From positions 992,001 to 1,056,000 of the forward strand of contig OZ242365.1 of assembly GCA_965208905.1 (NCBI GenBank): 64,000 bases of DNA. Reading direction: 5' to 3'. The stretch comes from Nitrosopumilaceae archaeon (GTDB lineage Archaea; Thermoproteota; Nitrososphaeria; Nitrososphaerales; Nitrosopumilaceae). This document shows positions 25,181 to 54,427 of the stretch, one piece after another (position 1 is the stretch's first letter; every line of letters starts with the position of its first letter). Below the pieces are notes generated by a model, which ran no database searches, was not told the origin of the DNA, and saw nothing but the letters and a program-made list of their open reading frames with translations. The translations under genes and the position numbers were made by a program.

Positions 25181-25454
25181 CTTGACAGTAACCAGAGTAT
25201 ACGCTTTAAGTCTTCGATTTTATAGTCTGCCAGATAGTCTGACCCCTGCTTTACCTGTATAGCCTTTGGCATGGGGGTTCAGGGGGAGGATCTAAACGTT
25301 TCGGTTTATTCTAAAAACTTGGGATACCATATCAAACGGCTCAGTGTATGTAAACGATCCTAATTCAACAAATTTTTATCCGAATCCTTTTTCAAATCAC
25401 TACACACACTGCCTATCACTACCTTTAAATGTGTATTTTAAGCAGTGTAATAGC

Positions 25455-32214: not shown

Positions 32215-33686
32215 GGGAATTATATACAAAAGTACACAGCCTCGGCTGTACACTCATGCCTTTTCTGACGGCTCTTCTGTATTGAATGGAGCATAGAAGG
32301 TGTTGGTTTGTAGCCCTCCTTATGCCCCGGCTGTCTTAGGACGACGTTCCCCGCCGCCCTATACAGGATATTCCAGGCGGCATTGACATCCGCGTGAAAC
32401 ACTCTGGTACAATTAGTGCAAATGAATTTGTCGCGTGTGACACGCGACTTAGCATCCACCGTACCACACACATGGCACGTCTGGCTCGTGTATTTGGCAG
32501 ATGCCCCCAACAGCGGTATGTTGTGTATCTCACACCACTGCGCAAGCTTGCGCAGGAACTCCCCGACACGGTTCTCCCGCATTGAACGGTTCATGGAGCG
32601 TTTGTAATTCCCACCATGCGTGGTCATGTCCTTTACGGAGAGCGACTCGACCACGACTGCGTCCACACCATTAGTTATCTGCGCAATCGTCTGATTTATG
32701 GTGTTCGCAGCTATGTTGTTGGCCTTCCTGTATAGCCGCTTTATTTGGTCATTCAATATATGCCACTTCCGGCCATGCCGTGTCTTGTGGTCACGCAAAC
32801 TCTTTAGCGCGTCAATCTCCCGCAGGATTGCTCTATGGCGGGTGTTGTGTATTGTAACGTTGCCATTTGTGTCGACAGTGACGGCGAGATGCTTGCCGCC
32901 CACATCAACACCCCGCATTACACCAGTATTGCGGTGCGACTCTACCGGTTCATGTATGGCAATATACAGCTCAAACATGTGGTCTGACGGCTTTGTATGC
33001 TTGTCCACCCGTTTGGTGACATCAACTATCTTGAATGAGCGCATGCCCCATGATGTATTGATGGGCTTGGCGGTCTCTACAATACCATATCCGGGGATAT
33101 GTATGGTGTGCCCACCTTTTCGTACAGGCGGTGTAACGGAACAAAGTATGATGCGGCCGTCTTTGCGGCGGTACGGCGCGTGGTCTGAGCTGTCATCTAT
33201 AACCCTTCTACATGCGACGGAGGCATCCTGTATGGCGCCCCTACCAAACGATGTGGGGCACTCGCGCAGCCATGTATGTTTGGCGCGCCACCCCGTAAGC
33301 TGTTTGTGCATGCCGTACTTTAATGCCCTCTTTGACGACCCAAAATCATATGTATGGTAGTCATAGTTCAGCGTACCGGACGTAACACCCTTCAACGTGT
33401 TCGGTAGTTTGAAGGGCTGTAGTATGTCCACTACCACCCTCTCCATGTATTCGCCGCCAAACAAATACTCTGATACGGCGCGGTTGTACACATATCTTGA
33501 CGCATGATTCGTGCGGTGCGCCCACTCTGCAAACAACACATCCATTCGTAGCGGTACCTTGACTATCCGTATCATAATGTATAATACGGTATGTTGGTAT
33601 TTAAGAGGAGTTGCTGTATGGACGCGTTCCGTGGTTCAGGTATTAACTCTCAGAATCGAGGTTGTGTACTTTTGTATATGATTCCC
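32215..33686 (-). mobile_element. IS1595-like TIR element carrying only tnpB (element E4)
   Basis: 30-bp TIR GGGAAT(T/C)ATATACAAAAGTACACA(G/A)CCTCG, 28/30 identical (32215-32244 / 33657-33686); no TSD retained. Confidence 0.9.
32220..33575 (-). CDS. tnpB: TnpB/Cas12f-like RNA-guided nuclease
   Basis: SRYVYNRA, RuvC-I GVDVG, RuvC-II VVESL, TSQTCHVC..CTNC and RuvC-III HADVNAA. Confidence 0.92.
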   Translation of the reverse strand: MIRIVKVPLRMDVLFAEWAHRTNHASRYVYNRAVSEYLFGGEYMERVVVDILQPFKLPNTLKGVTSGTLNYDYHTYDFGSSKRALKYGMHKQLTGWRAKHTWLRECPTSFGRGAIQDASVACRRVIDDSSDHAPYRRKDGRIILCSVTPPVRKGGHTIHIPGYGIVETAKPINTSWGMRSFKIVDVTKRVDKHTKPSDHMFELYIAIHEPVESHRNTGVMRGVDVGGKHLAVTVDTNGNVTIHNTRHRAILREIDALKSLRDHKTRHGRKWHILNDQIKRLYRKANNIAANTINQTIAQITNGVDAVVVESLSVKDMTTHGGNYKRSMNRSMRENRVGEFLRKLAQWCEIHNIPLLGASAKYTSQTCHVCGTVDAKSRVTRDKFICTNCTRVFHADVNAAWNILYRAAGNVVLRQPGHKEGYKPTPSMLHSIQKSRQKRHECTAEAVYFCI

Positions 33687-33782
33687 TTAATTTACGGTAA
33701 GCGCCGATAATTACACAGCTCAATAACCATACAAGCCTATTTTGATTGACCCGGATGTAAAGTTCGGAGGTCGGGGTGGCAG

Positions 33783-35204
33783 TTATCCTACGGTCCACTT
33801 GCTGGCTCCCTCATCACCGATGTGTACGCCGAGTATCCCATCTGGGCCTACGGCTATCACCGCGTATACTGTATCATCAACCCGCAGGATGTCTATGCCA
33901 AGCGCCATGTACCCTACGAGGCGCCCGACAACCTCAAGGTCCGACTCCCCCTCGTACAACCCTATATGGCCCTGTGTGTATCCCACATGGTATATGACAT
34001 CATCTATCTCTACCACCTCATGTATCACGTTGACACGCTTCACATTGTCCAGGTCTTCCCACGTTCTGGCGGGGTTCCTATCTAGGTGAATCAAATACGT
34101 CTGTATGCCATCAAAGGATGCGTCCACTAGGATGTATGTGCTGTCATCCTTGTGCGCCACCCCGTGTATGTGTTTGACACCCAGCAGATTAAAGTTGTCG
34201 GAGAGTGCTCCGGACCTTCGTATGTCATAAGGATCAGATACATCATACTGCTGTATGAGCCCCTTTGATACAGTTATCACGAGTGGCTTGCCGTCAACAT
34301 CAATTAGAACGGAATCTAGCACAGAGTTGTAGTGCGCAGTACCCGCCAGGGTGATGTTGGATGGGTCTGACAGGTCTGGCACACGAAATCCATTTGGGTA
34401 CATCTGAACGACATAAGGCTGTCCGTTCAGGGACCAGATGTCCACAGATGGCTCATCATACGAGTCCATCAGTTCCGGCTGATCCGAATCAGACATATCC
34501 AGAACATGTAGCCCGTCATCACCGGTGGATGCCACCACATATTCAGTACCGTTGATGCCCACCACCACTATATCATGAACGTGGTATCCCTGCAGGTGGA
34601 ACGACACCTCAAGTCTATTGCCACCGATATTATCAAAATTGGTTATACCCAAACGGGGGACAGTATATCCCAAGCTGTCAAAGGTCCTGTCGGGTGTCGG
34701 ATTTGCCGTGCCGTACATGAGATGACCCTCGTGGGAGCTGTGCCCCATTCCGAGCACATGGCCAAGTTCATGCGCCATCACGTACCTGATTATATCCGGG
34801 TTCGTGAGGCTGGCGCCATACACATCCGGCTCTGGTGAATCAAAGTCTATCCCGATTCGATGCCCCAGGGAACTGTCATGGTATTCCACCCCCCAAGCGT
34901 ACTCTGAATCAATCCACTCTATTAAAACATCGTGTCGGTCATCATGGCTTGGCGTGGCTATGATTCCGGGATTCACCTCAGTCCACGCGCTTATCCCGTC
35001 ACGGATGGCCTCCTTTATACTCTCCCAGTAGTCTTCGGCATAATCTGGGTACCTGTCCTGTAGCTCAGTGAATATGTCCGGGTGTATCCTGTATGTGATG
35101 ACCTGCGCATCAGCTGACTGTATGCCGTATGGGGCTGCCACCATGACTGCCACTACTGTTGCCATGCTTACCAAAGTTAGACTCTTGTCTGTCATATCCA
35201 CCAC
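33783..35204 (-). CDS. Secreted matrixin-type zinc metalloprotease with C-terminal LVIVD-like repeats
   Basis: Signal peptide; HELGHVLGMGHS..LMY metzincin motif; repeated GLHVLDMSD..P / YDVSDP units. Confidence 0.8.
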   Translation of the reverse strand: MVDMTDKSLTLVSMATVVAVMVAAPYGIQSADAQVITYRIHPDIFTELQDRYPDYAEDYWESIKEAIRDGISAWTEVNPGIIATPSHDDRHDVLIEWIDSEYAWGVEYHDSSLGHRIGIDFDSPEPDVYGASLTNPDIIRYVMAHELGHVLGMGHSSHEGHLMYGTANPTPDRTFDSLGYTVPRLGITNFDNIGGNRLEVSFHLQGYHVHDIVVVGINGTEYVVASTGDDGLHVLDMSDSDQPELMDSYDEPSVDIWSLNGQPYVVQMYPNGFRVPDLSDPSNITLAGTAHYNSVLDSVLIDVDGKPLVITVSKGLIQQYDVSDPYDIRRSGALSDNFNLLGVKHIHGVAHKDDSTYILVDASFDGIQTYLIHLDRNPARTWEDLDNVKRVNVIHEVVEIDDVIYHVGYTQGHIGLYEGESDLEVVGRLVGYMALGIDILRVDDTVYAVIAVGPDGILGVHIGDEGASKWTVG

Positions 35205-35756
35205 GCATCTATCTTGGACCCTACTTGCAGCAAGTGGTATGTGCTAATATGTTGGGGGGTTTGATGTGTTGCTGTCATGAGAATATTATATCCGGCACTT
35301 GGCTGAAAAGACTTGACACATTCGTCCATGTTTGGAATATATAGTCTCTATCCATATATTATTGTCTTCGTGATTGGTATGGATGGATGTCCTACTAACA
35401 AATAGTACTGCGGCAGCTAGATATACAATGGGGTGAGCCACTCTACAAGCGACTTGGTGAGCCTATATCATTACTGCTCAGGATGGCAGACAGTGGTTCT
35501 ACTCGGTTCGCTGGACACCTCACCGTTCACATATACAAGATGAGTGAGGTGTATCCATCTAGGGAGTTCCAGATGTTAAACTACAGGGCCAAGATAGGTG
35601 GCCTGCGAAGCGTCAAGCATGGACTAAAGTCGAAGGTGTGGTGTCTGTGAAGGCGCGCATCATTCGACTTTGGGATGATGCATAAGATGTCGTATCAATC
35701 GTGTTTGTGACAGAACCTAACAGGCTATATTAGCTCTAATCTGAGGTTTACACATA

Positions 35757-36416
35757 ATGAAGCTATACATCATGTTAGCCGTGGCCATCGCCGTTGCCAG
35801 TGCGCTCATAGTGTATACTGTATCCACACAGAATGATGTTTCTCCGGACATTCACACAATCTCACTTGTATCTACAATTGTGGATAACGCCTCTCCTGCG
35901 ATAGGTGGCCCTGACGCTCCCATAACACTCGTGGAGTTTGGAGACTATCAGTGCCACTTCTGTCACCAATTCTTTGTAAACACCAAAGACCGCATAATCA
36001 CAGACTATGTTGACACTGGTAAAGTGCGTATGATCTTTAAAGATTTTACCATAATTGGACCTGACTCCATACGTGCCGCTGAAGGTTCATGGTGCGCTCA
36101 GGAACAGAATCTATATTGGGAGTATCATGACATATTGTATCATAACTGGGATGGCGAGAACACTGGCTGGGCATCTGAAGCAAACCTCCACAGACTTGCC
36201 GCCGAGGTGGGCCTTGATGTGAATACATGGTCTGAGTGTCTGAACTCTGGTAGGTACTCTGATGTAATCTCATCTAGTAGTGATGATGCGCGTGAACTGG
36301 GTATTACAGGAACACCATCCTTCTTTGCAATACTGCAGAACCAGACGATTGTAAATATACACGGTGCGCAACCATACGAGCAGTTCGCCCAAGTATTCGA
36401 CTCCATGCTGCAGTAG
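35757..36416 (+). CDS. DsbA-family thioredoxin-fold protein
   Basis: EFGDYQCHFC, GITGTPSF and GAQPY. Confidence 0.9.
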   Translation: MKLYIMLAVAIAVASALIVYTVSTQNDVSPDIHTISLVSTIVDNASPAIGGPDAPITLVEFGDYQCHFCHQFFVNTKDRIITDYVDTGKVRMIFKDFTIIGPDSIRAAEGSWCAQEQNLYWEYHDILYHNWDGENTGWASEANLHRLAAEVGLDVNTWSECLNSGRYSDVISSSSDDARELGITGTPSFFAILQNQTIVNIHGAQPYEQFAQVFDSMLQ

Positions 36417-36505
36417 ACTCAGAGACTGTATGTCACATTATGTATGATATCTGATGTAAGCCACACTGCCATCACACATACTCTCTGTCATACTATGAAT
36501 GCGTT

Positions 36506-37980
36506 AGAGTTTATGCGTAATTGCACAACTTGGCAGCATTGGGTGGTCCCGGCCCGTTCTGGCCGGCACCGCCCACCCCGGTACAGCCCATCGGCTCACC
36601 GCCGACGGAATTCTGGCGTTCCGGTTTGTGCGCCCCCGACAAATGCCATTCGGCATCTGCACTACGACTCTCTAACAGCCGCATGATGTTAAGAAGTGTA
36701 ATTCTCCGACCATGCGTGAGTGTGCGGTCGGCGGCCGCCTCTTTCAGCAGCCGTGTTATGTGGTATAGTGTGGTGTTTGATGATATAGTGGTATTACACA
36801 TCAGAGCCAAAATGGTACGAAATAGTATGTTGGCACCCGCGTTGGCATCCCGTTCCCTAATTGTACGACATGTATAGCACCACATGTCGCGGGTCGGTAT
36901 TTTACCGGTATTGGTCCCAATATGTTTTAGATCTCCGCCACATTTGAGACATTTCGCGGACGTATTTCGTGGTTCGATGCTTATATGCGGCAGACCCTCG
37001 GACTCGGCTGCGTTTTTGAGTGCATTCTGTCTCTGGCCCGTATTCAGTGTGGATTTTGTTTTGCCACGGATAAATGGTGATATTGTATAGTTTTTGGTGT
37101 ACAGTCGGTGTATGCTCAATGTTTCATGCCCTATGCCGTATCCGGCATTGGCCATCTTCCGGGCTTCCACACATACATCATTATGGATGCGGTTTTTGTA
37201 CACACTCCATGCCCTGTTTGTGTATTTTGTCATAATGCGGTTATCGTTACGCCGCTTCACCTTTAGCATCTTGCTGTGTGCCTTGTTGTATTCACGTGCA
37301 TTGCGGTTGGGCCGCATAACTACAGTGCCATCAGCGAATGCATAGGTGTTGTTTTTGGCATTCATATCCACACCGGCCCAGGATATGGGCTCGCTATACG
37401 GAACGTCTTCCTTGTATGTAATGTATATCTCATTATATCTTAGTAGTACAGTCTTTGGTATTCTACCAGGCTTGGTAAGCTCATCCACTACATATGGTGG
37501 TACAGGGAAGGCCAGCCATGGCTTATCTGGACGGCCCCTACCGTATATTGGTACATGTATTGATGGTGTGCCATTCCATCGTTTTGATGTATCATCAAAT
37601 GCCAGCTCGAACCTGTCAGTCTGCGCCACAGGGTTGTGGTAGTGTGGGGCACGTACATGCACATTAACCAACTGATTCGTACGCCATGCCTTGTAGTTTC
37701 CATGCACGCTTTGTATTATATAGTCGGCGAAGCGTGAGTGGTATACGCCAGTACGGTGCACCGCCATACGATATAGTTTCTTGCCGCGCACACCCTTGCG
37801 TAATACCTTCGCAGCATGGTTGGACGCAGCCCCCACATAATGTAACAAACCACCCAAAAGATGTCCACTGTCATGTGTTACATGGATGGTGCGCATTATT
37901 GTGCCCATACACATGATGTATAGCTTATGGTATTTATATATACGGTACTGTACATCATGATTCGATTACGCATAAACTCT
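36506..37980 (-). mobile_element. TIR element carrying only tnpB (element E5), 3-bp TSD
   Basis: Perfect 16-bp TIR AGAGTTTATGCGTAAT (36506-36521 / 37965-37980); TSD GTT (36503-36505 / 37981-37983). Confidence 0.9.
36511..37914 (-). CDS. tnpB: TnpB-like RNA-guided nuclease
   Basis: GVDMN, IGHETL, NTSAKCLKC..CYTC and RERDANAG. Confidence 0.87.
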   Translation of the reverse strand: MCMGTIMRTIHVTHDSGHLLGGLLHYVGAASNHAAKVLRKGVRGKKLYRMAVHRTGVYHSRFADYIIQSVHGNYKAWRTNQLVNVHVRAPHYHNPVAQTDRFELAFDDTSKRWNGTPSIHVPIYGRGRPDKPWLAFPVPPYVVDELTKPGRIPKTVLLRYNEIYITYKEDVPYSEPISWAGVDMNAKNNTYAFADGTVVMRPNRNAREYNKAHSKMLKVKRRNDNRIMTKYTNRAWSVYKNRIHNDVCVEARKMANAGYGIGHETLSIHRLYTKNYTISPFIRGKTKSTLNTGQRQNALKNAAESEGLPHISIEPRNTSAKCLKCGGDLKHIGTNTGKIPTRDMWCYTCRTIRERDANAGANILFRTILALMCNTTISSNTTLYHITRLLKEAAADRTLTHGRRITLLNIMRLLESRSADAEWHLSGAHKPERQNSVGGEPMGCTGVGGAGQNGPGPPNAAKLCNYA

Positions 37981-38265
37981 GTTGTATATGACATTCTGGT
38001 ATGTGCTCCTCGCAGTCTGCATGTTGCATGCGGCAAGTCTAGTGGCTGCTTGACGGCTCAGCTATACGCGAACCATTGGGAGTCGTGTATCCTACCTGTA
38101 TGTCGCACCCACATGTGAGCCGTCCTACTGGTATATCGTATAGTATGACATCCATCTCTTTAAAATGACTGTTCGTACAGTGGGCTGCACGCGTGTTTAT
38201 TCAGGTATGTAATTCCCCATTATACCCATAAAAACCATATATGTAGGCATTATAATGTCATGTAG

Positions 38266-39648
38266 ATGGCTGCTGGAATTGATGACATATCGGTCTACAT
38301 ACCAAAACTATACGTGGATACTGAAGACTTTGCTCAAGCTCGAGATGTCAATATAGACAAGATGCGCAAGGGCTTGGGCATATACCAGATGGCCATAGCT
38401 GACAACAACCAAGATCCTGCATGCCTGGCGGCTAATGCGACTTACAAAATTATGAAACGCAATGACATACATCCAAAAGATGTGGGCCGGCTCTACATAT
38501 CTACTGAATCCTCATTTGATGAATCCAAAGCCATGAACGCGTATGTGGTGGGAATGCTTGAGCAAGTGTATGGGCCTGGTACATTTGGGCACTGCGGAGG
38601 TGTCGAGACAAAGTTTGCATGTGTGAGCGGCTCTTATGCACTATATGACAATCTGAACTGGATAAGGGCCGGGGAGGCCGACTCCCAGTATGCACTAGTT
38701 GTAGTCTCTGATATTGCAAAGTATGATTTAGGTTCTAGTGGTGAGATGACACAGGGCGCCGGAGCCGTTGCGATGCTCTTGAGTGATGACCCGCATCTAC
38801 TCACCTTTGATCCCAAGGTGACTGCCACATCCATAAGTGATGAATATGACTTTTACCGTCCTTTCGGCAAGGATACCCCCATAGTCCACGGCCAATACTC
38901 CAATCTACTATACCTGCTGCAAGTCCGAAAAGCCTTGGATCTCTACAAGAAGAAGGTACTATCAACCAAACTCATAACGCCGGGCCCTGATGAATCCATA
39001 CTGGATTATATCGACTATTTGAACATGCATCTTCCGTACAGCGCCATGGGACGTAAGGCTTTGGCGTATCTGCTGCGACATGAATGGAGGCATCTCCCTC
39101 GCTGGAAGTCATTGATAGAGAAGATTGGCATGGCCGAACCTGTGGCACAGCATCCTGGTACCATCGAGACCATACTTGCCAATCCTGAGTTTATAAAAGA
39201 TGATAGCAAGTTTAACAGACTACTCATGGAGACTGATGAATTCATTGACATATATGAAAAGAAGCTGTCTAGCTCACTCATTGCATCAAAGATGATTGGC
39301 AACCTCTATACCGCCTCATTATATCTGGGACTTAGAAGTAGTCTGGAATATGAGCATCGCAAAGGTGTAGACCTGGCAGGCAAAAGAGTTGGCTTTGGCT
39401 CATACGGTAGCGGAAGTAGCGCCATGGTGTTTAGTGGCGTAATCACCGAAGAGTATGCTGATGTTGTCTCAAAGATGAATTTAGACTCTGAGATGAAGAA
39501 CCGGCGCCGTTTGACGTTGGACGAATATGAACTACTACACCGTGGGCAGATGCCTCTCACTGAATCCATACTGTCCGGCGATGGTGAATTCATACTTACC
39601 GATGTGAATAAATCAAACAGTGAGCGACAGTATGTCTTCAAATCATGA
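38266..39648 (+). CDS. Hydroxymethylglutaryl-CoA synthase
   Basis: TESSFDESK, KFACVSG, GEMTQGAGA, HLPY, GNLYTASL and SYGSG. Confidence 0.92.
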   Translation: MAAGIDDISVYIPKLYVDTEDFAQARDVNIDKMRKGLGIYQMAIADNNQDPACLAANATYKIMKRNDIHPKDVGRLYISTESSFDESKAMNAYVVGMLEQVYGPGTFGHCGGVETKFACVSGSYALYDNLNWIRAGEADSQYALVVVSDIAKYDLGSSGEMTQGAGAVAMLLSDDPHLLTFDPKVTATSISDEYDFYRPFGKDTPIVHGQYSNLLYLLQVRKALDLYKKKVLSTKLITPGPDESILDYIDYLNMHLPYSAMGRKALAYLLRHEWRHLPRWKSLIEKIGMAEPVAQHPGTIETILANPEFIKDDSKFNRLLMETDEFIDIYEKKLSSSLIASKMIGNLYTASLYLGLRSSLEYEHRKGVDLAGKRVGFGSYGSGSSAMVFSGVITEEYADVVSKMNLDSEMKNRRRLTLDEYELLHRGQMPLTESILSGDGEFILTDVNKSNSERQYVFKS

Positions 39649-40160
39649 GCGACAACCCTCTCAAAGATATACTCTTTGAGCGTTTGAATACCCACAATGC
39701 AGAACGACTAATATCTACACATAACTATGCAGAATTAATAAAATATGTCATACCATATATGATGGACAAAACCCATAATGTCGTACCATACGAAGAGTCG
39801 GCAGTTGCAATATCCACAGGCATACTGCACTATATACTGACCGTCTCTGCCACGCCCAGCCAAAGACAGGTTACCTACAAAGATGTAGATGTTGATATAG
39901 TGCTGCCCGACATCCGACAACTAAACAGAGACCCTTCCTTGGCTGTTATAATACAGATATGCCCCAACTGTGATGTGGCAAGACATAGACTACACAATAC
40001 GACCACCATACAACCCATACAGAAGAACATCTGGCTGTTGACCCCCTACGACTGTTACTATCACATATTTGATGGCTCGCCATCCTTCTCTGACCTATTA
40101 TACGATATGATAAAATTCTCGCGCACCCATAATCAAAACAAACTAGGGCTATTAGGATAA
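39645..40160 (+). CDS. Hypothetical protein
   Basis: 171-aa ORF translationally coupled between HMG-CoA synthase and bioA. Confidence 0.65.
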   Translation: MSDNPLKDILFERLNTHNAERLISTHNYAELIKYVIPYMMDKTHNVVPYEESAVAISTGILHYILTVSATPSQRQVTYKDVDVDIVLPDIRQLNRDPSLAVIIQICPNCDVARHRLHNTTTIQPIQKNIWLLTPYDCYYHIFDGSPSFSDLLYDMIKFSRTHNQNKLGLLG

Positions 40161-41410
40161 TGTCTTTTGTGTGGCACCCCAATACACAGATGTCTGAGTG
40201 GAAGGAGTTTGATCATATCGTCAGCGGCGATGGCATGTGGCTACAAGACTCTACAGGACATCGTATGCTAGATGCCGTATCTTCAATGTGGTGCAACGTT
40301 TGGGGACACTCTGAGACCGAACTGATAGATGCACTGTACAATCAGGCCTGTATGATACCCCACGCATCACTCTTCAACATTACACATACCCCTGCAGAGT
40401 CTTTGGCCGGGCACCTGATACAGATATGTCCTAACATGAGACATGTCTTTTATACAGATGATGGCTCGACTGCCATGGAGGCCGCATTCAAGATGGCTGT
40501 ACAATACTGGCAGAATCAGAAATCCCCCAAAAACATGCTGGCAAGTCTTTCGAATGGATATCATGGTGACACAATAGGCGCAATGTCGGTGGGATACTCG
40601 GATACTTTCTTTGGAGCATATCGCCATATGACTCCTAGATGTATACGCATTCCTACACCAAATCATGGCGTGACCAATTGGAGCGATACGTTGGATCATT
40701 TATCTGAGACTTTGGAGTCGAACAAAAACATTGCTGCTGTAGTCATGGAGAGTGGTGCGCAGACTGCCGGTGGCGTAGTGATATATCCTGAGGCATTTCA
40801 GACTGCCGTATCTCAGATATGTCACAAAAACGATACACTACTTGTGGTGGATGAAGTGGCCACCGGTCTGGGTCGTCTATCTCACATGGCCGAGTACGCT
40901 GCGCAACAATCCAATCCGGATATCGCCGTATACAGCAAGATGCTCACTGCCGGCTATATGCCTCTGGCCGCCACACTTGCAACTGACAAAATATATGATG
41001 CCTTCTTGGGGGACTACTCTGACCATTTACATCTCTTTCATGGTCATACATTCTCTGGTAACCCCTTGGGTGCTGCTGTGGCCAACCGAAATTTAGAGTT
41101 GTATGCAGAACGCCAACTGATACAACACGTGCAACAGTTATCTCGCATATTTGCTGATGGGCTAGATGTAATGTCTGATACCAAAGGAGTACTTGATGTG
41201 CGGTACAAAGGATTACTGGCAGGCATAGACATTGATATAAACTGCGATGTCTCCTCTGCCAATTATACGATATATCAGATTGGTCGTAAAAATGGTGTAT
41301 ACCTGCGAACATTGGGGAACACAATACTTGTGGTGCCACCCTTGGCCATTTCACCCGAGGAACTATCACAGATTCTCACTGGCGTCTCGGACACCATCCT
41401 CGCCCTCTGA
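40160..41410 (+). CDS. bioA: DAPA aminotransferase
   Basis: WHPNTQM, SSMWCNVWGH, YHGDT, DEVATGLGR and HGHTFSGNP. Confidence 0.93.
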   Translation: MSFVWHPNTQMSEWKEFDHIVSGDGMWLQDSTGHRMLDAVSSMWCNVWGHSETELIDALYNQACMIPHASLFNITHTPAESLAGHLIQICPNMRHVFYTDDGSTAMEAAFKMAVQYWQNQKSPKNMLASLSNGYHGDTIGAMSVGYSDTFFGAYRHMTPRCIRIPTPNHGVTNWSDTLDHLSETLESNKNIAAVVMESGAQTAGGVVIYPEAFQTAVSQICHKNDTLLVVDEVATGLGRLSHMAEYAAQQSNPDIAVYSKMLTAGYMPLAATLATDKIYDAFLGDYSDHLHLFHGHTFSGNPLGAAVANRNLELYAERQLIQHVQQLSRIFADGLDVMSDTKGVLDVRYKGLLAGIDIDINCDVSSANYTIYQIGRKNGVYLRTLGNTILVVPPLAISPEELSQILTGVSDTILAL

Positions 41411-41593
41411 GAGGGCACGCCTTCTTCTATACCAGATGGCTATGCCGCCAGCGATCATCGCACTAAACAATATGATCCCTGCCATCTGTAGCTCAAAGTT
41501 GTATAGCATGTTACATTCTATATTCATTCAAAATATAAAAGACATATTCTACAATTTGAAAAAGTAATAAGTAACAAAGTTATTTCATACATA

Positions 41594-44092: not shown

Positions 44093-44096
44093 CTCT

Positions 44097-44405
44097 CTAA
44101 TGCAGCTCTATACTGCCATCTGGAAAGCCAAGGCCTATTAATGTCTCTTTTATGGTCTCTCGATGATCTCCTTGTAGAAATATGTAGCCATCCTTGGCAG
44201 TACCGCCACAGGCATACTTGCTTTTGAGTCCCTTTGCTACACTATCAACATTATTGGTCTTTGGGTCTATACCTTCAATCATTGTGCCCTTCTTCTTGAA
44301 ACGTCTAGTTTCTAGTCGAATTATGATTTTAGCCCCATCTCGAGCTAACTCTACACACGCACAAAGATCCTCGGGTAAGCCACACGTGTTGCAAATAACT
44401 GCCAT
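44097..44405 (-). CDS. Translation initiation factor aIF1 (SUI1 family)
   Basis: CGLPEDLCAC, LKSKYACGGT and LQGDH. Confidence 0.93.
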   Translation of the reverse strand: MAVICNTCGLPEDLCACVELARDGAKIIIRLETRRFKKKGTMIEGIDPKTNNVDSVAKGLKSKYACGGTAKDGYIFLQGDHRETIKETLIGLGFPDGSIELH

Positions 44406-44460
44406 TGATTCAATACACGTAGGCTTAACATGTTATTAAGCCTTAGGGAGATGGCGGGAT

Positions 44461-45506: not shown

Positions 45507-45514
45507 GAGATGGC

Positions 45515-45854
45515 GGGATTGTTGCGTAATTCGATCCTGGCACCACTGAAGCCCAACCAATAGATTTTTTGATCGTTGATCCCTTACACTCGACAATGAA
45601 TAGATGACCGGACTATTGGAAATACTACCATCTGCATTATACTGGACAACCGCCGCCGGTTCGGCAAGATCCGGACCATCACCTGAAACATCAAGGTGCT
45701 GAACCGACTCAAGTGTGCTCGGATACGTGAGATGGATATGCCATCCTACGGCATGGTGTCATGTGCGTGACCGTACAAGTTAGTATGTTCCACCAATGAA
45801 ACCACGGCGGGGCACATGCGAAAACAAGATCAGATGGAGTTACGCAACAACCCC
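45515..45854. mobile_element. MITE/IS remnant with IS903-like TIRs
   Basis: TIR GGGATTGTTGCGTAATTC / GGGGTTGTTGCGTAACTC (16/18); internal IKVLNRLK..MPS resembles a transposase C-terminus; no TSD. Confidence 0.65.
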
Positions 45855-45877
45855 AACCTTGCGGTGAAGTTTTTATA

Positions 45878-46750
45878 TTGAGGCGTGTCCGTTTTGCTAA
45901 AATGGCTACTATGTACAAATCACACGGCAATCTTAACTCGTATCGAATTTATCTACGGCCAATGGCCAAGTGCAGATATGGTAACAGTACTTTAAAGAGT
46001 CTTAAACCACATCAAAAAAATGTGCTAAATATACTGCACATATTATTTATGTACGGTAGTGAAACCACATGGGCCATGGCCAAGACTAAGATGGGCAATA
46101 TCGAGAACATACGTACACAGGAAAAAGTCTTTAGACGCCTCATAGTAGGGAGGATGGACAGAAAGAAATACTCAGACGGTCTAGTGAATAACGGTTTGGT
46201 AGTAGCAGAAAAAGATCCCATAAAACCATACATGAAATACCGGCTGTCACTACACGGCATACTGTATAGTATTGATGCTCTTGACCCATTGCAGAAGTCC
46301 ATAGACCACATGACAACAAAGTATGTGCACATACTGCCGAAGGTGTTTGGAAAATGGGAAATGCTCAAGAGAATCCTGGGCGAGGATGTGTACAGTTTGA
46401 GAATACTCGCAAGTGGACTGTTTCTGAACAACATATATCTGGCAAATATGAGCGCCCCAGTTTATGAACTCATGTTGTTTCTTCACATAAAATACAAAGG
46501 CAGTTTTGAGATCATGTATGAGCATGATTTGGCTGAACAGATCTCGTATTGGTTCTACACGTTTTTGATGTACAAAGATATTGACAAGCTAAAAGCGATA
46601 TTGACCAATGACGACGACATTCGTGACTGGTACATAAAATTCATCCAGCAGGCAAAGTTGTATTATGATAATAGATTGCTTGCCATGAAAAACGTCAGTA
46701 ATACACTTGACATCAATATTCCAGATGTTGAGGTAAGTGAAAGTAAGTAA
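45878..46750 (+). CDS. Conserved hypothetical protein (possible winged helix)
   Basis: 290-aa ORF with YRLSLHGILY wing-like motif; start uncertain. Confidence 0.65.
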   Translation: MRRVRFAKMATMYKSHGNLNSYRIYLRPMAKCRYGNSTLKSLKPHQKNVLNILHILFMYGSETTWAMAKTKMGNIENIRTQEKVFRRLIVGRMDRKKYSDGLVNNGLVVAEKDPIKPYMKYRLSLHGILYSIDALDPLQKSIDHMTTKYVHILPKVFGKWEMLKRILGEDVYSLRILASGLFLNNIYLANMSAPVYELMLFLHIKYKGSFEIMYEHDLAEQISYWFYTFLMYKDIDKLKAILTNDDDIRDWYIKFIQQAKLYYDNRLLAMKNVSNTLDINIPDVEVSESK

Positions 46751-46824
46751 CTGTTAGGATTCTGACTTGCGCAATCGTTAGAGTCGAACCGGTAGTAGGA
46801 CACAAAAATTATTCTAGGCGGCAT

Positions 46825-47169
46825 TCAGATTAGTATCTTGTCCAGATCACTGAGGCCTATCGGCTTTATCAACAGTCCGGCTAGCGACTGTGACTTGGCG
46901 GCCTTGTATTTCTCATTGTCGAGGGAGTAGCCCGACATGAAGTATATCTTGGCATCTGCATATCGCTGTTTGAGACGGTTAAACACCTCGTACCCATCCA
47001 TGCCTGGCATATTTATATCCAACAACACGATGTCTGGCTCAAACTCCTCATACGTCGTCACAGACTCACGGCCATCTGTGACAGGGTTCACAGTATGCCC
47101 CTTCATAATAAGCATGAGATGCAAAGACTCTAAATAATCCAAGTCGTCATCTATTACAAGTATCTTCAT
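46825..47169 (-). CDS. Single-domain response regulator
   Basis: ILVIDDD, LLDINMPGMDG and KP. Confidence 0.93.
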   Translation of the reverse strand: MKILVIDDDLDYLESLHLMLIMKGHTVNPVTDGRESVTTYEEFEPDIVLLDINMPGMDGYEVFNRLKQRYADAKIYFMSGYSLDNEKYKAAKSQSLAGLLIKPIGLSDLDKILI

Positions 47170-47203
47170 TTTGGAACCTCGTCATACTTCATTGCATACT
47201 CAC

Positions 47204-48520
47204 CTAAACTCTGCGTACTACTCCCCCGGTATCTGTTGAGCTAAACGTCTGTGTTTTTGGAATGTATATGGAGAACAGCACTAATCCATTCTGATTCGAC
47301 GTCGTTATGCTCCCTTTGTGTAGTTTTACTATGTTCTTGCAGTATGTAAGTCCTAGCCCAGTACCATCTTTCTTGGTTGTAAACAACGGATCAAACATAT
47401 GTGGAAGAACATGTGAGGGTATGCTTGGACCTGAGTTCGCAAACTCCAGTATGACAGTGCCGTTCTTGTTACCAGTCTCAACATCTTCGTCACGAATACG
47501 GACGACTATGCGCCCTTGATTGTGTCCTATGGCCTGGACAGCATTACTCAACAGGTTGTAGAATACAAATTCCATCTTTTTGTTATCGCACTCTACGTTT
47601 ATGTTCTGATCGTCGTCGGGTATGTGTAGGTCGATATTCTTGGGCAGTGTTAACATATCCACTGCGTTGTGCAATATTTCCAACAACATAACTGAGTGCA
47701 GGTTGAGTGGGGTGTTGTTTACAAAGGTCAAGATGCTTTCGATCTGGTGCGATATACGCTTGATTGACCGCTCCATTCTTGCCGTCTCTTTGTTGAGTGG
47801 TGTGTCTAGATTAGATTTTTTGATCAATTCAACTGAATTGAGCAACGACCCAAGTGGGTTCCGTATGTTGTGTGCCATGGTGGCCGAAAATTTACCAAGA
47901 ACCTCAAATCGCTCCATTTGTACAGTCTTGTCTACATATGATCGAGTGATGCGCCGTACTAGAAATGTAATGAACGTCAACACTGTAATGTTAGCGATAC
48001 CAAGAAGTATCAGAAGTAATGAATTATGTGTAGTAATATCATTAAGGTGGGTACTAAGTTGTTCGTTCATGTTGTTTGCTATTTCAATTATCTTATTACC
48101 TAGTGTGTGTACCGACTCTACGTTATCATAAGTGAGGCCATTCTTTGAATTGATCATCTCTGTCAGCACAGTTGTGTATTGATCTACTACAACCCCCATC
48201 TCGTCCAACTCCGAATGCAGTCCCTGCGGCAGAGGTAGAATATCGTTCCCCCCCATAATGCTGCTATAGAGAAGTTCGGTGTTATGCTCTAACTCTTCAA
48301 TGGCAGTCTCAACATTCATGTGCATCTCACTTTCGTGAAATAGTGTACGGTACATCTCAAGCTGTACAGTGCTGGCTAGTAGCCGGTTCTTTCCTGTAAC
48401 GTCGATCAGTTTCCCATAAGAGGAATGTTGTAACTCGATGTGTGCTACAACAAGGAAGCTCGAGATGACCAAAATGGCTTGGACAAATATGAGTGATAGA
48501 ATCTTATGCAAAGCATTCAT
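47204..48520 (-). CDS. Membrane sensor histidine kinase
   Basis: Two TMs, AHNIRNPL H-box, NLLSNA, FTTK and GTGLGL. Confidence 0.92.
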   Translation of the reverse strand: MNALHKILSLIFVQAILVISSFLVVAHIELQHSSYGKLIDVTGKNRLLASTVQLEMYRTLFHESEMHMNVETAIEELEHNTELLYSSIMGGNDILPLPQGLHSELDEMGVVVDQYTTVLTEMINSKNGLTYDNVESVHTLGNKIIEIANNMNEQLSTHLNDITTHNSLLLILLGIANITVLTFITFLVRRITRSYVDKTVQMERFEVLGKFSATMAHNIRNPLGSLLNSVELIKKSNLDTPLNKETARMERSIKRISHQIESILTFVNNTPLNLHSVMLLEILHNAVDMLTLPKNIDLHIPDDDQNINVECDNKKMEFVFYNLLSNAVQAIGHNQGRIVVRIRDEDVETGNKNGTVILEFANSGPSIPSHVLPHMFDPLFTTKKDGTGLGLTYCKNIVKLHKGSITTSNQNGLVLFSIYIPKTQTFSSTDTGGVVRRV

Positions 48521-48590
48521 ACGTGCGCGTCAACCCCACCTTACTGAGTGCATGTACTCACATATACACTTTTAAATTGTATTGTATGGA

Positions 48591-48670
48591 GAGTTAGTGT
48601 CGTAACTCCTCCTGAACCAGCAAAAATTGGGCAAATTTTACGCCTAGAATTTAGGTTATGACACTAACTC
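48591..48670. mobile_element. 80-bp MITE
   Basis: TIR GAGTTAGTGTC(G/A)TAAC; 8-bp TSD TGTATGGA (48583-48590 / 48671-48678). Confidence 0.85.
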
Positions 48671-49571
48671 TGTATGGAAATCATGTCGCCTAGGCTTAGC
48701 TAAGAGAAGGTCACAGGAATACAACAAGCTATATAGATCAGGAGAATCGACGAAGACTGTGCTGACGGACAAGTCCATACACTACATCATCCGACAACTA
48801 GAGAATGGTAGAGATATTATGGTGGTGGCAGAGGAGATGAAAGTGTCACAACAGCACATCTAGCGGCTGTGGGCCGAATATTTCAAGACTAGAACGATAC
48901 ACATTCAGGGCCGAGTGGACGGCCCAAGGGCGCCGAACCCTCTAATACCTAGGCAAAAATGGTGCTGGACACGCACCGTCACTGGCCAGACGGAGTGCAG
49001 TTGACCGTAAAGAGGCTCCGGAGGACCGGATATAATATAGGTACACTAGAGTATATCGTATATTGAAGTCCAACGATATGGTCACCTCCTCCCCGGCAAA
49101 GTCAAGGCAGCGGAAATGAGTGCGGTATGAACGCCTCTACTCAAATGCCATGTGGCATGCCGCCTGGCATGCCGCCTGGCATGTCATGAAGGATCCTCGA
49201 ATGAAAGGAATGAACCTGATCACATATCTGTATGACGCTTCGCGGTGCGTCACCGGAGCTGCCCTCTTCAGGGAGGCCAACTCGAAGAATGCAGTGATGA
49301 TGCTGAGGCAGGCCATCAGCAGGTTCGGCGTACCGGCAACCATCCTATCTGACAACGGTTCCTGTTTTGTAGGTGCAAGAGGTCGCAAAAAGCCGAAGAA
49401 TTCTTGGATGCCGACATTGTTCGAGAACGAGCTGCCGTCCCTCAATATAAGCCTGATCAACTCAAAACCATGCCGCCCGCAGACCAACGGAAAACTGGAA
49501 CGATTCCACAGGGGTATTGAAGACGAGATATGGCGCTATGGCTGCCTGGACGACTACATCGAATAATACAA

Positions 49572-50681
49572 TAGTTGGGAGCATAAATAATCCTACACTC
49601 TATTAGAAATACATAAATGATCAAAATTACTAACTAATTATATGAATAACCAAACTAATGCCCAAAAAATAAAGGCTGCCCTAAAACAGACTAAGAGTGC
49701 GACACAGCACGCCCGTATCGTAGCCGTAAACATGGTGCGCATTAAAGGATATACCATCTCTGCGGCAGCGGATGTGCTTGGTGTCGATCGTAGCACCATA
49801 TATGATTGGCTTAATGCCTACGACCACAAAGGCCTGGATGGCCTCGCCGATGGTGCGAGGCCTGGCCGTCCATCTTTCGTACCGCGCCACACATTAGAGA
49901 ACATAATTAACGGTGTCAAGCGATTTACCGCCTACGGATTTGTTAAACTGGCTGAGAAAAAGACCGGCATAAAATACAGCGAATCACAAGCGCGCCGTAT
50001 CCTTAGGTCTCTTGGCTTCACTATACGGAAGACTCCCCGGATATCCGACCGAATTCCACCAAGGAAAGATCTCGAAATCTGGCAGAAAGACACCAAAAAG
50101 GAGGCAGAAATGTTTGAAAAGGACGGTTTTACACTCGTGATGGTAGACGAAAGCCACCAAAATTTAAGTATGTTTGGCAGCGGCGCAGTCTATACACGCG
50201 GTGATGCCATACCGGTACAAACGCCACTCGGCAACCAGCGCCAGACCATATACGGTGGCATCACGCTAGATGGGCAGACATGCTATATGGCCGCTAGCAA
50301 GGCCAACGACAGGTCCTTTATCAGATATTTGAACAAGACGAAAAAACGGTTCGGCAAGGTTGCCGTAATACTGGATAATGCTGCATATCACAACTCTAGC
50401 CGCGTAAAGCGATACTTGAAAAAGAATAGTGATTTCATCAAACTAATATTTCTGCCGCCGTACTCACCATTTCTGAATCCGGCCGAATGGCTGTGGCTCA
50501 ACGGCAAGGCAAGGATACGGCGGACTTTCAAGCGACCTGCCAAGAGATATTTCCGGAGGAAAATCATGCGGATATACGAGTCGCTGGAAATAAAGTTTGA
50601 TCCGCGCAGCATTCTGTTCAGAAATTTAGACAAAATCCTACCGGTGTAAAACTGGTGTCGGGTTATTTATGCACCTAACTA
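49572..50681 (+). mobile_element. IS630-family element
   Basis: TIR TAGTT(G/A)G(GA/GT)GCATAAATAA with terminal TA; encloses the transposase. Confidence 0.88.
49642..50649 (+). CDS. IS630-family transposase
   Basis: HTH, VDES, LDNAAYH and LPPYSPFLNPAEWLW. Confidence 0.93.
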   Translation: MNNQTNAQKIKAALKQTKSATQHARIVAVNMVRIKGYTISAAADVLGVDRSTIYDWLNAYDHKGLDGLADGARPGRPSFVPRHTLENIINGVKRFTAYGFVKLAEKKTGIKYSESQARRILRSLGFTIRKTPRISDRIPPRKDLEIWQKDTKKEAEMFEKDGFTLVMVDESHQNLSMFGSGAVYTRGDAIPVQTPLGNQRQTIYGGITLDGQTCYMAASKANDRSFIRYLNKTKKRFGKVAVILDNAAYHNSSRVKRYLKKNSDFIKLIFLPPYSPFLNPAEWLWLNGKARIRRTFKRPAKRYFRRKIMRIYESLEIKFDPRSILFRNLDKILPV

Positions 50682-50855
50682 AATACCGCCAGACTGCACT
50701 GGGCGCTGGACATAGACAACTATGAAACATCCATGATGGTGTTCTGCAACAAGACGACCATTAACTAGACACGGAAGCAGAATTCCAAGTGGATGGAGGC
50801 GGACATCAATGAGTGACAGCTACGACGTAGCGCGACATGATTTCTATACAATACA

Positions 50856-51555
50856 TGTACCTGAGCATATACATAAATTATTATGCTTGAAAAAATCATC
50901 TTCCGATATTATCACTGGTCAGAAGGGGATAAATGATTACCCTCATGGTGCTCTCATGACCGGCTCCCAAATAGTCATTAACTACTTAAACCGTCCGAGC
51001 TAACCTCACCGTCCGCCTCGTGATATATATATTTCAACACTCTCTTAAGAAGGTACATCCTCAGTAACCGTTTAACCTCCCCACAAATGAGTTCCTCCCG
51101 CAAGGCTGGATGGCGGCCCGAGACGAATCACGATGCCGCTAGACGCCCACTACATCCAATATGTGACAGAAGAAGGATGTTGATGGGATGGTACGCAACG
51201 GAATGCCCTGCGTTTGGACATGGTGAATTCACCCGTTGGTGTAGAAGAACCCGTTTTATGGTCCTTATAAGGGGGTTAAACGGTTACCATACTCAGCCCC
51301 TCTTGGTTTTCAGGTGTGATGTCTGACTGAATTTCGTTGTTCTACGCCTACAAAAGGAGAGGGTTGGGCATGTACCTTAAGTAGTGTCTCTTTTTTTGCC
51401 TACTTATCACCGCCGTTACACATGCTTGCATGCATGTTTAGTACTCACCCTAATTGATATTTGATATTTGTTATCCTGTTGCGGTATGCCTTTGCAGTCA
51501 TTTTACGGTTCTAGTGAATTCGTACTGATTTAATAATTCCCTCCTATCTTGGTCT
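50856..51555. repeat. Left arm of ~370-bp inverted repeat flanking IS481 element (interrupted by insertion 51050-51378)
   Basis: Near-identical reverse complement of 55453-55820. Confidence 0.9.
51050..51378. mobile_element. Nested MITE-like insertion
   Basis: Absent from the other repeat arm; ends AAGGTACAT/ATGTACCTT with AAG duplication; inner IR GTAACCGTTTAACC (51064 / 51288) and an IS6-like end GTTCCTCCCGCAAGG at 51091. Confidence 0.7.
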
Positions 51556-51629
51556 TGTTGTAGTATATGAAAATTATGGGAATTATATAGTTTGTAACAA
51601 ACGAATATAAGGCAGAATCCCCCCCCCGT

Positions 51630-52994
51630 ATGGCAGGCATTAAGAATAGAACCATATTCACAGGGGATAATCTAGAGATATTACGTGGCTTTCCAGACGA
51701 ATTTGTAGATTTGATATATCTAGACCCACCGTTTAACTCCAAACATAACTATGCCGCTCCAATAGGTTCAAAGGCAGCCGGGGCCGCATTCAAGGATACG
51801 TGGAATCTAAGTGATATTGACTTGGCATGGTGGGGCGAGATCCAATGTACGAGTCCAACTGTATACAAGGTGCTTGAGATGGCCCGTGCAACGGCGGGAA
51901 AGTCAGCAATGTCGTATTTGATTTACATGGCAATACGCATATTGGAGTTACATAGAGTTTGCAAATCAACAGGTTCATGTTATATTCACTGTGATTCGAC
52001 TATGTCCCACTATTTGAAGATGGTACTTGATGCAATATTTGGCATTAAGAATTTTCGCAATGAGATACTCTGGAAACGGTTTAGTGCGCATAATGATGGC
52101 CGAAGGTATGGCAAGGTAACTGATACTCTATTATTCTATGCTAAGACATGTACACATACATGGAATAGAGTTTATACTCCATACTCAGATGAATATATAC
52201 AATCAAGTTACCGCGATGAGGATGAACTGGGCCGTTACACGCATAGAGCCTTAACAGCAGAAGGGCTATCGGGGGGAGGGTATGAGTATGAATTTCATGG
52301 ACATCATCGTATTTGGAAGAGATCTTTGGAATCCATGCAGCGATTAGAAAGTGAAGGAAAAATACACTTTCCGAAAAAGAGTGGAGGTGTGCCTAGATAC
52401 AAGATATATCTTAAAGATGCTCTAGGCATACCTTTACAAAATATTTGGACAGACATACCCATTGTAGGCGGTAATGAAAAACTACATTACCCAACTCAAA
52501 AACCCCTCGCCCTACTGGAACGTATTATCAAAGCATCAAGTAATGAGGGGGATATTGTATTGGATCCATTTTGTGGATGTGCTACAGCTTTGAGCGCGGC
52601 AGAGAAGTTAGATCGGCAATGGATAGGTATAGACATATCTACAAAAGCGTATGATTTGCTCAAAGACCGTCTTGTCAGAGAGGCGGGCCTTGACAAGTAC
52701 ACTAAAGGGGCGGGTATACTAATACACCGCACCGACATTCCAATACGCAAGGGCAGGCGGTCTAAAGACATCAAAGACACTCTATACGGTAAACAGAGGG
52801 GGCGGTGCAATCTCTGCCCTCACTGGTTTGAGTACAGACAAATGGACGTGGATCATATCATACCCAAGTCCAAGGGTGGGGCAAATGATGATGCAAACTT
52901 ACAGTTGTTATGCAACAACTGTAACAAGATCAAGGGTAATCGCACTATGGCAGAGGCAAGGGCAATACTCAAAGAAAGAGGGCTTATCGAGTAA
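51630..52994 (+). CDS. N6/N4 DNA methyltransferase fused to C-terminal HNH endonuclease
   Basis: IYLDPPF, YPTQKP and VLDPFCGCAT; CNLC..DHIIPKSKGG..NLQLLCNNCN. Confidence 0.9.
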   Translation: MAGIKNRTIFTGDNLEILRGFPDEFVDLIYLDPPFNSKHNYAAPIGSKAAGAAFKDTWNLSDIDLAWWGEIQCTSPTVYKVLEMARATAGKSAMSYLIYMAIRILELHRVCKSTGSCYIHCDSTMSHYLKMVLDAIFGIKNFRNEILWKRFSAHNDGRRYGKVTDTLLFYAKTCTHTWNRVYTPYSDEYIQSSYRDEDELGRYTHRALTAEGLSGGGYEYEFHGHHRIWKRSLESMQRLESEGKIHFPKKSGGVPRYKIYLKDALGIPLQNIWTDIPIVGGNEKLHYPTQKPLALLERIIKASSNEGDIVLDPFCGCATALSAAEKLDRQWIGIDISTKAYDLLKDRLVREAGLDKYTKGAGILIHRTDIPIRKGRRSKDIKDTLYGKQRGRCNLCPHWFEYRQMDVDHIIPKSKGGANDDANLQLLCNNCNKIKGNRTMAEARAILKERGLIE

Positions 52995-53251
52995 TGGGGT
53001 TAAGGGAGTTGGGGGTATTAATTGGCTTAATTGTTGTAATGGTCATAGTGGCTATTTTAACTGCACTATGTGAATTTATGTCATCACAATCAAATTTAGA
53101 AGGTCTGTGGGCCGAGACTCATGAACGAAATTTATCAATTATCTGTTTTGTTGCTAACATGTTTAAGAATGACACAGCGGTGGAACAATCGCAAAATATT
53201 ATCACCATACAAAGGTATGATAACACACAAACCCACAATCAGTCTTGCTAA
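52994..53251 (+). CDS. Small hypothetical membrane protein (passenger)
   Basis: Start coupled to the MTase stop; N-terminal TM; overlaps an opposite-strand ORF. Confidence 0.35.
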   Translation: MGLRELGVLIGLIVVMVIVAILTALCEFMSSQSNLEGLWAETHERNLSIICFVANMFKNDTAVEQSQNIITIQRYDNTQTHNQSC

Positions 53252-53414
53252 ATCATCTTGCCACCACTCTATTTGTGACGGCCCGCCAATCTGAACTCCC
53301 AAGATAGGAATTGTTAGGAATAAACCTAAGGCCAATCCAAAAAATATTACTGGTTTGCGTATGGATGTTGATCCCATAATTAAGTTAAAGTTAAAGATCA
53401 AATAAGTGTTACTG

Positions 53415-54359
53415 TTATGCAATCAACGCTTCATAAGTAAGCCTCTTTCCCATCATACCTCTAACTAGACTTACCATCATGTCTATTGTGTCTAGATTCC
53501 GAATGTTTAGCCGTCCTGCAAACTCGTTAACATACCTGTGTAGATGCTTTGCCGATATGTGATGAAACGTGCCGTAATAGCCACGCTTTAACAAAGCCCA
53601 GAAAGACTCTATGCCGTTGGTATGCGCCATGCCGTTTACATATTGACTAACGGAATGGTTAACCGTTTCATGATTAGGTAGGTTTTGGTATGCCCTACTC
53701 TCGTCCGTATAATGGGTTGCTCCCGTCTTGGTGTTTTGTTCAATAAATTTACCAAGACGGGCAGCGGTTGTATCCGGTACGGGTTCGGCTCTGATGTTAC
53801 CTGTCTTTCTATCTTTGATTCCAACCACGGCGGTTTTGTTGGCGCCGCCTTGACTGTGTGGGGTTTTCTTGTCTGCATGCTTGTTGGATTCCTTGCCTCC
53901 GAAATATGCCTCGTCAATTTCGACTGGGCCTTCCATCTTGTCTGTACCTGCCAGTGTATGCCATGATTCACGTAACCTTTGTACCATGAACCATGCCGAC
54001 TTTTGGGTTATGCCCAAATCCCTATGCAGTTTCATTGAACTAATACCCTTAACGTTGGTCATGAACTGATATGTTGCAATGGCCCATTGTTGATATGTCA
54101 TATGGGATTGTTCCATGATTGTTCCTACCTTGACACTAAACCGCTTGTGGCAATTCCCCACACCTGCACAGTAATACGGCATCTTTTTGTACTTTGTTTT
54201 TTTGATGTTGGTATTACCACAAAACGGGCAGCATGGCTTATCGTCCCAAATTGTACGTTCAAACCACTTTTCGGCGGCATCATCATCAGGAAATATCTTG
54301 AATAGTTTTGCAAGCGTTATTCCTTCACGGTGACTTTTACCGGGTGCTTGTTGGCTCAT
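53415..54359 (-). CDS. IS1595-family DDE transposase, intact
   Basis: CPFC Zn ribbon, VEIDEAY, YTDE, TVNHS and HTNGIESFW..LKR. Confidence 0.93.
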   Translation of the reverse strand: MSQQAPGKSHREGITLAKLFKIFPDDDAAEKWFERTIWDDKPCCPFCGNTNIKKTKYKKMPYYCAGVGNCHKRFSVKVGTIMEQSHMTYQQWAIATYQFMTNVKGISSMKLHRDLGITQKSAWFMVQRLRESWHTLAGTDKMEGPVEIDEAYFGGKESNKHADKKTPHSQGGANKTAVVGIKDRKTGNIRAEPVPDTTAARLGKFIEQNTKTGATHYTDESRAYQNLPNHETVNHSVSQYVNGMAHTNGIESFWALLKRGYYGTFHHISAKHLHRYVNEFAGRLNIRNLDTIDMMVSLVRGMMGKRLTYEALIA

Positions 54360-54427
54360 AGTATACCTTAGAAACATGGATTATATAAAGATTGTTACAA
54401 AGTATATAATTCCCAAAATTATGTCCG

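Follow-up and report, generated by a model that had tools for sequence, protein, structure and literature searches.

The window considered here, a 64,000-nt stretch of contig OZ242365.1 (GCA_965208905.1, positions 992,001-1,056,000) from a Nitrosopumilaceae archaeon, carries an intact transposon of the IS1595 family of insertion sequences (IS) together with cassettes that have tnpB as their only gene, among them E4 and E1 (Table 1). The host genome is one contig of 2.21 Mb, with a G+C content of 45.6% and a completeness of 99.6%. E4, E1 and about two dozen relatives in this genome contain only tnpB, a structured 3' RNA region and inverted repeats of the IS1595 type, and the comparative evidence set out below supports, all pointing the same way, a movement of these cassettes by IS1595-type DDE transposition.

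The IS1595 transposon has three open reading frames, for the transposase, for a methyltransferase-HNH cargo protein and for a small product that gave no match in a Pfam search. Its catalytic domain, N-terminal zinc ribbon, inverted repeats and 8-bp duplication place the segment 51578-54414 in the IS1595 family. The right end reads GGGAATTATATACTTTGTAAC on the minus strand from 54414 and the left end, at 51578, GGGAATTATATAG; these inverted repeats match at 23 of 30 positions, start with GGGAATTATATA(G/C)TTTGTAACAA and are enclosed by two identical copies (8/8) of AAAATTAT. The pattern GGnnATTAT is presumably that of the termini of the ISNwi1 group in ISfinder. Homologues of the cargo gene lie at genome positions 1771087-1772461, 1371232-1372671 and 159986-161458: a second IS1595 copy holds a related but disrupted cargo gene, and two further homologues were found elsewhere in the genome by tblastn.

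E4 begins, on the plus strand from 32215, with GGGAATTATATACAAAAGTAC. Its inverted repeats (GGGAATTATATACAAAAGTACACAGCCTCG and GGGAATCATATACAAAAGTACACAACCTCG) match at 28 of 30 bases, and the stop codon of its tnpB lies 5 bp inside the element end. In an alignment of the E4 TnpB with PDB chain 8iaz_A, the RuvC D/E/D residues (GVDVGG, VVVES, HADVNAAWN) and the CxxC pairs of the zinc finger line up. The TnpBs of E4 and E1 both pass the general TnpB model of NCBI and fall far under the models specific for IS200/IS605 and for IS607.

Table 1. Features of the window, with positions counted from its first nucleotide
Feature	Position	Strand	Evidence
Intact IS1595-family transposon with cargo, 2837 bp; duplication AAAATTAT at 51570-51577 and 54415-54422	51578-54414		Ends and duplication
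IS1595 transposase, 320 aa	53415-54377	-	PF12762 (139.6 bits) and PF12760; NCBIfam transpos_IS1595 (NF033547) 173 bits, cut-off 75
IS1595 cargo: N6/N4 DNA methyltransferase fused to HNH nuclease, 454 aa	51630-52994	+	Pfam PF01555 and PF01844
E4, tnpB-only cassette with IS1595-type inverted ends, 1472 bp	32215-33686	-	Sequence comparison
tnpB of E4, 451 aa	32220-33575	-	Pfam PF07282 and PF01385; NCBIfam guided_TnpB (NF040570) 120 bits, cut-off 100
Candidate omega RNA scaffold, 3'-terminal 240 nt of E4, ending in the inverted repeat	32215-32454	-	Conserved helices
E1, tnpB-only cassette; tnpB at 10235-11563; duplication TACGCTGA at 10213-10220 and 11659-11666	10221-11658	-	Sequence; empty site in G005
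Solo IS1595-type terminus (GGGAATTACATAC...), like the right end of the E1-type family	38205-38217	-	Terminus search
E5, tnpB-only, inverted ends AGAGTTTATGCGTAAT, 3-bp duplication GTT; not IS1595-type	36506-37980	-	Contig of run X7

Ends, duplications and empty sites of the cassettes

The first-pass annotation of this DNA had proposed that E4 shares its terminal 13 bp with the intact IS1595 transposon, and the two ends are indeed identical at all 13 bases. With up to two mismatches, this 13-base terminus occurs seven times in the window compared with 2.69 expected, a count that none of 100 shuffled sequences reached. A survey of the whole genome, which the same annotation had called for, found 77 matches with at most one mismatch, compared with about three expected by our own arithmetic, and four intact IS1595 copies with shared ends. 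All four have GGGAATTAT in common, and the terminal 10-13 bp are identical between them and the cassettes. One match in the window, with two mismatches, falls within the coding part of tnpB (32600-32612) and was taken as chance. At 38217, where a relic with the same start as E1 had been reported, an IS1595-type terminus is present as a solo end resembling the E1 type; it is no part of the element that holds the adjoining tnpB (36511-37914), the ends of which are of another kind.

The further claim that E1 and the IS1595 transposon both have 8-bp target duplications also held, with perfect copies of TACGCTGA and AAAATTAT, respectively; the far end of E1 is degenerate (GGGACTTATCCC). For a census of the genome, inward-facing termini were paired and four E1-type units with a degenerate far end were added. 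The E4 family comprises 17 units with both ends present, of which 12 have identical flanking 8-mers, one a 7/8 and one a 6/8 match, and three no duplication; the corresponding numbers for the seven E1-type units are five, one, one and none. Duplications are perfect (8/8) in all four intact IS1595 copies, in all three tnpB-less miniature elements and in one further tnpB family with the same ends, and the duplicated 8-mers are AT-rich in the E4 family and the IS1595 copies alike. The genome contains 77 matches to the TNB domain, representing about 74 tnpB loci, and 11 matches to the IS1595 transposase domain, four of which are intact frames of 320-323 aa. The cassettes outnumber the autonomous IS1595 copies by about six to one.

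Ten genomes of the genus, the host genome and nine others, were available for comparison. They include G005, from a closely related species whose flanks are 89-98% identical to those of the host genome, and G001, from a sister species. At all eight insertion sites checked in G005 the element is absent, and five of the eight are cleanly empty, with the 8-mer there once. These five are the sites of E1 (a single TACGCTGA), of E4-family copies at genome positions 339644, 1760171 and 456071, and of a cassette at 28035 with ends of another type, starting GGTTCC. The remaining three sites, those of E4 itself and of the copies at 33496 and 239554, are not clean. At the E4 site, homology with G005 continues right up to the junction 32214/32215, after which G005 has 95 nt in place of E4 and a further 36 nt, and the lack of an E4 duplication can be put down to this replacement; the 8-mers now flanking E4, TCTATATA and TTAATTTA, agree at 5/8 positions. 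The copy at 33496 (locus L037, 33400-35032) lies inside an extra 153-bp segment, bounded by TA and absent from G005, possibly itself a small element that belongs to a different family, and the left flank of the copy at 239554 has diverged from that of G005. G005 has no close counterpart of the E4-family TnpB, its best match being 30% identical, and thus the insertions are later than the split of the two lineages. Contigs from two DNA runs end within the E4 repeats on both sides, so that some copy of the family is present at the E4 site in those strains also.

The relatives contain units in which the two partners are physically joined. In G001, a composite unit of 2562 bp, bounded by an E1-type end on one side and by the far end of the IS on the other, combines a tnpB gene (449 aa) with an IS1595 transposase gene (328 aa, identified by Pfam) and is enclosed by a perfect duplication, CCGGTATC. 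A second G001 copy of this unit, 79% identical, has its own 8-bp duplication, TACCGCGA. G006 has a complete tnpB cassette at a distance of 6 bp from an IS1595. Among 17 tnpB loci in the relatives (one in G001, seven in G006, six in G009 and three in G005), nine have the same end class together with a perfect 8-bp duplication (four in G006 and five in G009); for six of the others the script found no repeat pair, one has a one-base offset and one belongs to another end class.

How the cassettes may be mobilised

The cassettes thus have ends matching those of a resident autonomous element and the same length of duplication as that element, with empty sites in G005 for E1 and three E4-family copies. 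On these grounds, E4, E1 and their relatives are very probably non-autonomous passengers of the IS1595 family, mobilised in trans by an IS1595 transposase. The DDE transposase, made elsewhere in the genome from one of the four intact copies (53415-54377 being one of these), would bind the shared GGGAATTATA(TA) termini and insert the cassette through a staggered cut, which would generate the 8-bp duplication. The first-pass annotation had suggested that this or a related transposase acts on the tnpB cassettes in trans, a suggestion supported by the ends that the elements have in common, by the duplications and empty sites, by the lack of Y1 TnpA described below and by the composite units of G001. 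Which transposase acts, and that it does so in trans, is what we infer from these comparisons.

Several observations weigh against this assignment. Past base 13, the E4 repeat is matched by no resident IS1595 copy, and the closest IS1595 end, agreeing at 21 of 23 bases, is found in G005, that is, in another species. E4 and two other members of its family have no duplication. In addition, several tnpB families have ends starting with GGTTCCTCCCGCAA (the GGTTCC-ended families) and no transposase with such ends was found in the host genome, so that part of the tnpB cassettes must have a mover other than the enzymes found. The search for such a partner clustered all repeated open reading frames of at least 170 aa, with Pfam searches of 20 representatives; IS630 and the three most frequent IS types proved to have ends of another kind. 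A second IS1595 clade of the genus was rejected as the partner, its ends being CGCTCAT..., and a 5-kb candidate from G009 resolved into ordinary tnpB cassettes. The mover of E4 and E1 could be another transposase that also makes 8-bp duplications, possibly the one that serves the GGTTCC-ended families, with the ends being IS1595-like but not used by IS1595. The perfect 8-bp duplications and the one clean empty site of the GGTTCC-ended families, their missing cognate enzyme and the mismatch of the E4 repeat beyond 13 bp would all fit such a scheme. It is nevertheless improbable, given the two composite units of G001, each with tnpB and the IS1595 transposase gene inside a single duplication, the terminal 10-13 bp, which are identical in the cassettes and in each of the four intact IS1595 copies, and the similar AT-rich 8-mers duplicated by both.

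The GGTTCC-ended families were seen in the window at 7540-8124, at 55821-56609 and from 60986 onward, as well as genome-wide, with perfect 8-bp duplications. Ends of the GGTTCCTCCCGCAA type occur in nine of the 10 genus genomes searched (G000 counted).

A gene for TnpB would by itself suggest ordinary IS200/IS605 (IS1341-type) or IS607 elements, which a Y1 TnpA would transfer in single-stranded form or a serine TnpA would mobilise; the majority of published tnpB-only elements belong here (PMC4810608, PMC13565253). Elements of the IS200/IS605 and IS607 groups are described there, and in PMC3119063, as having neither inverted repeats nor target duplications, whereas the cassettes are bounded by 23-30-bp inverted repeats and flanked by duplications of 8 bp, which the empty sites bear out. 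Nor is the enzyme to be found. Y1 TnpA (PF01797) gave no match in any of the 10 genus genomes, although control genomes did give matches, and the serine recombinase domain (PF00239), searched for in the host genome, gave none there. Neither the Y1 (HUH) TnpA that the IS1341 group needs nor the serine recombinase TnpA of IS607 was therefore found in the host genome, while the IS1595 transposase domain is present in all 10 genomes. The IS200- and IS607-specific TnpB models were likewise not reached. The duplications, together with the empty sites, already contradict a mobilisation of the IS200/IS605 or IS607 kind, which we regard as scarcely credible for these cassettes.

A mobilisation of the cassettes by an IS1595 transposase would have counterparts in known systems. 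Altae-Tran et al. (2023, PNAS; PMC10691335) described six DDE-linked TnpB branches, all with inverted terminal repeats, and solo TnpBs with near-identical ends that were proposed to move in trans. In the main text of that paper, IS630 is named and IS1595 is not. The cassettes resemble those branches, as presented there, in having tnpB between DDE inverted repeats, in the nearness of the tnpB 3' end to the transposon end and in the solo copies with matching ends, and differ in the genus-wide absence of TnpA, the orthologous empty sites and the one-sided flank motif described below. A 2026 review lists ISL2, IS630 and IS1031 as DDE partners and reasons that, for cut-and-paste DDE transposons, little advantage is to be expected from TnpB (PMC13565253). 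A literature search for IS1595 together with TnpB gave no paper on the subject by title or abstract. IS1595-family elements with passenger genes have been termed 'transporter IS' (Siguier, Gagnevin and Chandler 2009, as cited in PMC3129680); these share with the cassettes the inverted repeats, the 8-bp duplication and a passenger gene, but here the passenger is an RNA-guided nuclease whose RNA scaffold runs into the terminal repeat. Fanzor1 genes of eukaryotes are reported to occur within transposons of the DDE type (Bao and Jurka 2013, PMC3627910). They too are TnpB homologues carried as passengers between inverted repeats and target duplications, the differences here being an archaeal host, another transposon family and cassettes without a transposase.

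With the IS1341 group, the cassettes have in common a single tnpB in about 1.4-1.5 kb and a structured RNA at the 3' end. IS200/IS605 members enter immediately 3' of a target of 4-5 nt and depend on Y1 TnpA (PMC4810608, PMC13565253). In the cassettes all the corresponding features of the IS1341 group, the lack of repeats and of duplications, insertion directly 3' of the target and Y1 dependence, are contradicted. DDE-carried TnpB has thus been known in outline since 2023, and what is added here is the genus-wide loss of TnpA, the orthologous empty sites and the composite units, whilst the family-specific one-sided flank motif is new. The wider point is that a whole archaeal genus has tnpB genes with no canonical TnpA found, and that the cassettes studied would spread as DDE passengers, for which an IS200/IS605 or IS1341 label is wrong. 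The genus provides a natural system in which to ask what TnpB does for a DDE transposon.

A motif on one side of the insertion sites

When the flanks are read in the sense of tnpB, with positions counted relative to the element end, a motif of 4-5 nt is seen just 5' of the duplication, on the 5' side of tnpB only; it is specific to the family, and the other side shows none. At E4-type left ends there is an A at -12 in 10/12, a T at -11 in 9/12, a G at -9 in 11/12 and a T at -8 in 10/12 (A-T-n-G followed by T), compared with a G at -9 in 5/20 of the right ends (binomial p = 8e-7, Fisher p = 6e-4). The GGTTCC-ended families have motifs of their own. In a 1.5-kb family this is ATTG (T at -11 in 8/9, T at -10 in 8/9 and G at -9 in 6/9), and in a 1.6-kb family (T/A)TA followed by C (T at -10 in 14/15, A at -9 in 14/15 and C at -8 in 11/15). 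The E1-type families have no motif, with a G at -9 at none of eight left ends. Conservation in a relative is seen in G006, whose TnpB is 56% identical and where four of five left flanks have the G at -9 (GATG, ATAG, ATGG and CTGG, the exception being GCGA; one flank was read by hand and has a one-base offset).

Three E4-family empty alleles were checked in G005, and two of them have the motif. In the third case, the copy at 339644 (locus L096) compared with its G005 counterpart (L103), the empty allele reads ATAT before the 8-mer and the filled one ATAG, so that they differ at the best-conserved base of the motif; this is a single case that may be chance.

In an empty allele, the motif lies directly 5' of the sequence that would be matched by a guide read from the right end across the duplication into the flank. 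[quoted passage not shown] Because of this position, cutting of empty alleles by TnpB is proposed: TnpB would cut alleles that lack the cassette, such that only TAM-adjacent insertions spread or reach fixation. More generally, and tentatively, TnpB may mark where DDE-moved cassettes persist, either through such cutting, which would favour TAM-adjacent insertions, or by helping in the choice of target; the flanking sequences suggest this possibility, to which we would give somewhat less than even weight.

The main alternative, in our estimation a somewhat less likely one, is that the motif stems from the transposase or the transposition complex, which would choose targets in an orientation-specific way, with no part played by TnpB. 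In favour of this, a G at -9 is found on 5 of 14 flanks of elements that have the same ends and no tnpB, a small sample, compared with a base frequency of 0.23. However, elements of the same end class have different flanks, with the G at -9 in 11/12 E4-type and 0/8 E1-type left ends, and the two families that share GGTTCC ends differ in their motifs (ATTG compared with TTA followed by C), which speaks against such a preference.

If the motif is a TAM, the 8 bp of duplicated target separate it from the element end, and pipelines that take the TAM right beside the left end would misread such elements. If a mark of TnpB on cassette persistence is real, it would be the first natural evidence of TnpB working for a DDE transposon.

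Candidate guide RNA and other mobile elements

The last 240 nt of 12 cassettes, seven from the host genome and five from G006, were aligned, and seven helices are supported. Cells of the helices are paired in 95.2% of cases, compared with 41-53% in slid controls, and pairs changed on both sides number nine, compared with 0-2; these figures are to be read with the structure having been derived from the same alignment, with two clades represented and with a region that also encodes the C-terminus of TnpB. The terminal hairpin, in which the terminal repeat's inner portion forms the 3' arm, is preserved in the two species despite differing sequence, and about 11 unpaired bases separate it from the element end. 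A search of positions 30000-56000 against Rfam gave no match. Two metatranscriptome runs, available as contigs that cannot show RNA ends, give low cover over E4, and one RNA contig spans the junction between flank and right end of another copy of the family, where DNA carry-over is possible.

E5 is a mobilisation class distinct from that of E4 and E1. It is missing from the strain represented in DNA run X7, in which one contig joins 36502 to 37981 with three shared letters. A GGGTATGTCCC repeat considered as the end of E5 was ruled out, as the empty site of run X7 shows other ends. In the same run, the tnpB element at 21698-23083 is uncovered and segment 23099-24503 is linked the other way round (window 21520-25408), which points to rearrangement between strains beside mobile elements.

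Exchange between copies is also apparent within the genome. Two tnpB cassettes of equal length, at 1455264-1456902 and 2049469-2051107, have TAATTTCC on opposite sides, the first on its left and the second on its right or the reverse, and this swap of flanks is a sign that two copies some 600 kb from each other have undergone homologous recombination. Young insertion sequences are abundant in the genome (for example at 1401677-1402720, 843261-844316 and 1074024-1075270, and in the window at 49571-50681). A 1044-bp element is present in 13 copies at 99.7% identity or higher and one at 94%, a 1056-bp element in seven, a 1247-bp element in 13 and an IS630 element in five identical copies, and some of the young insertion sequences sit inside tnpB cassettes.

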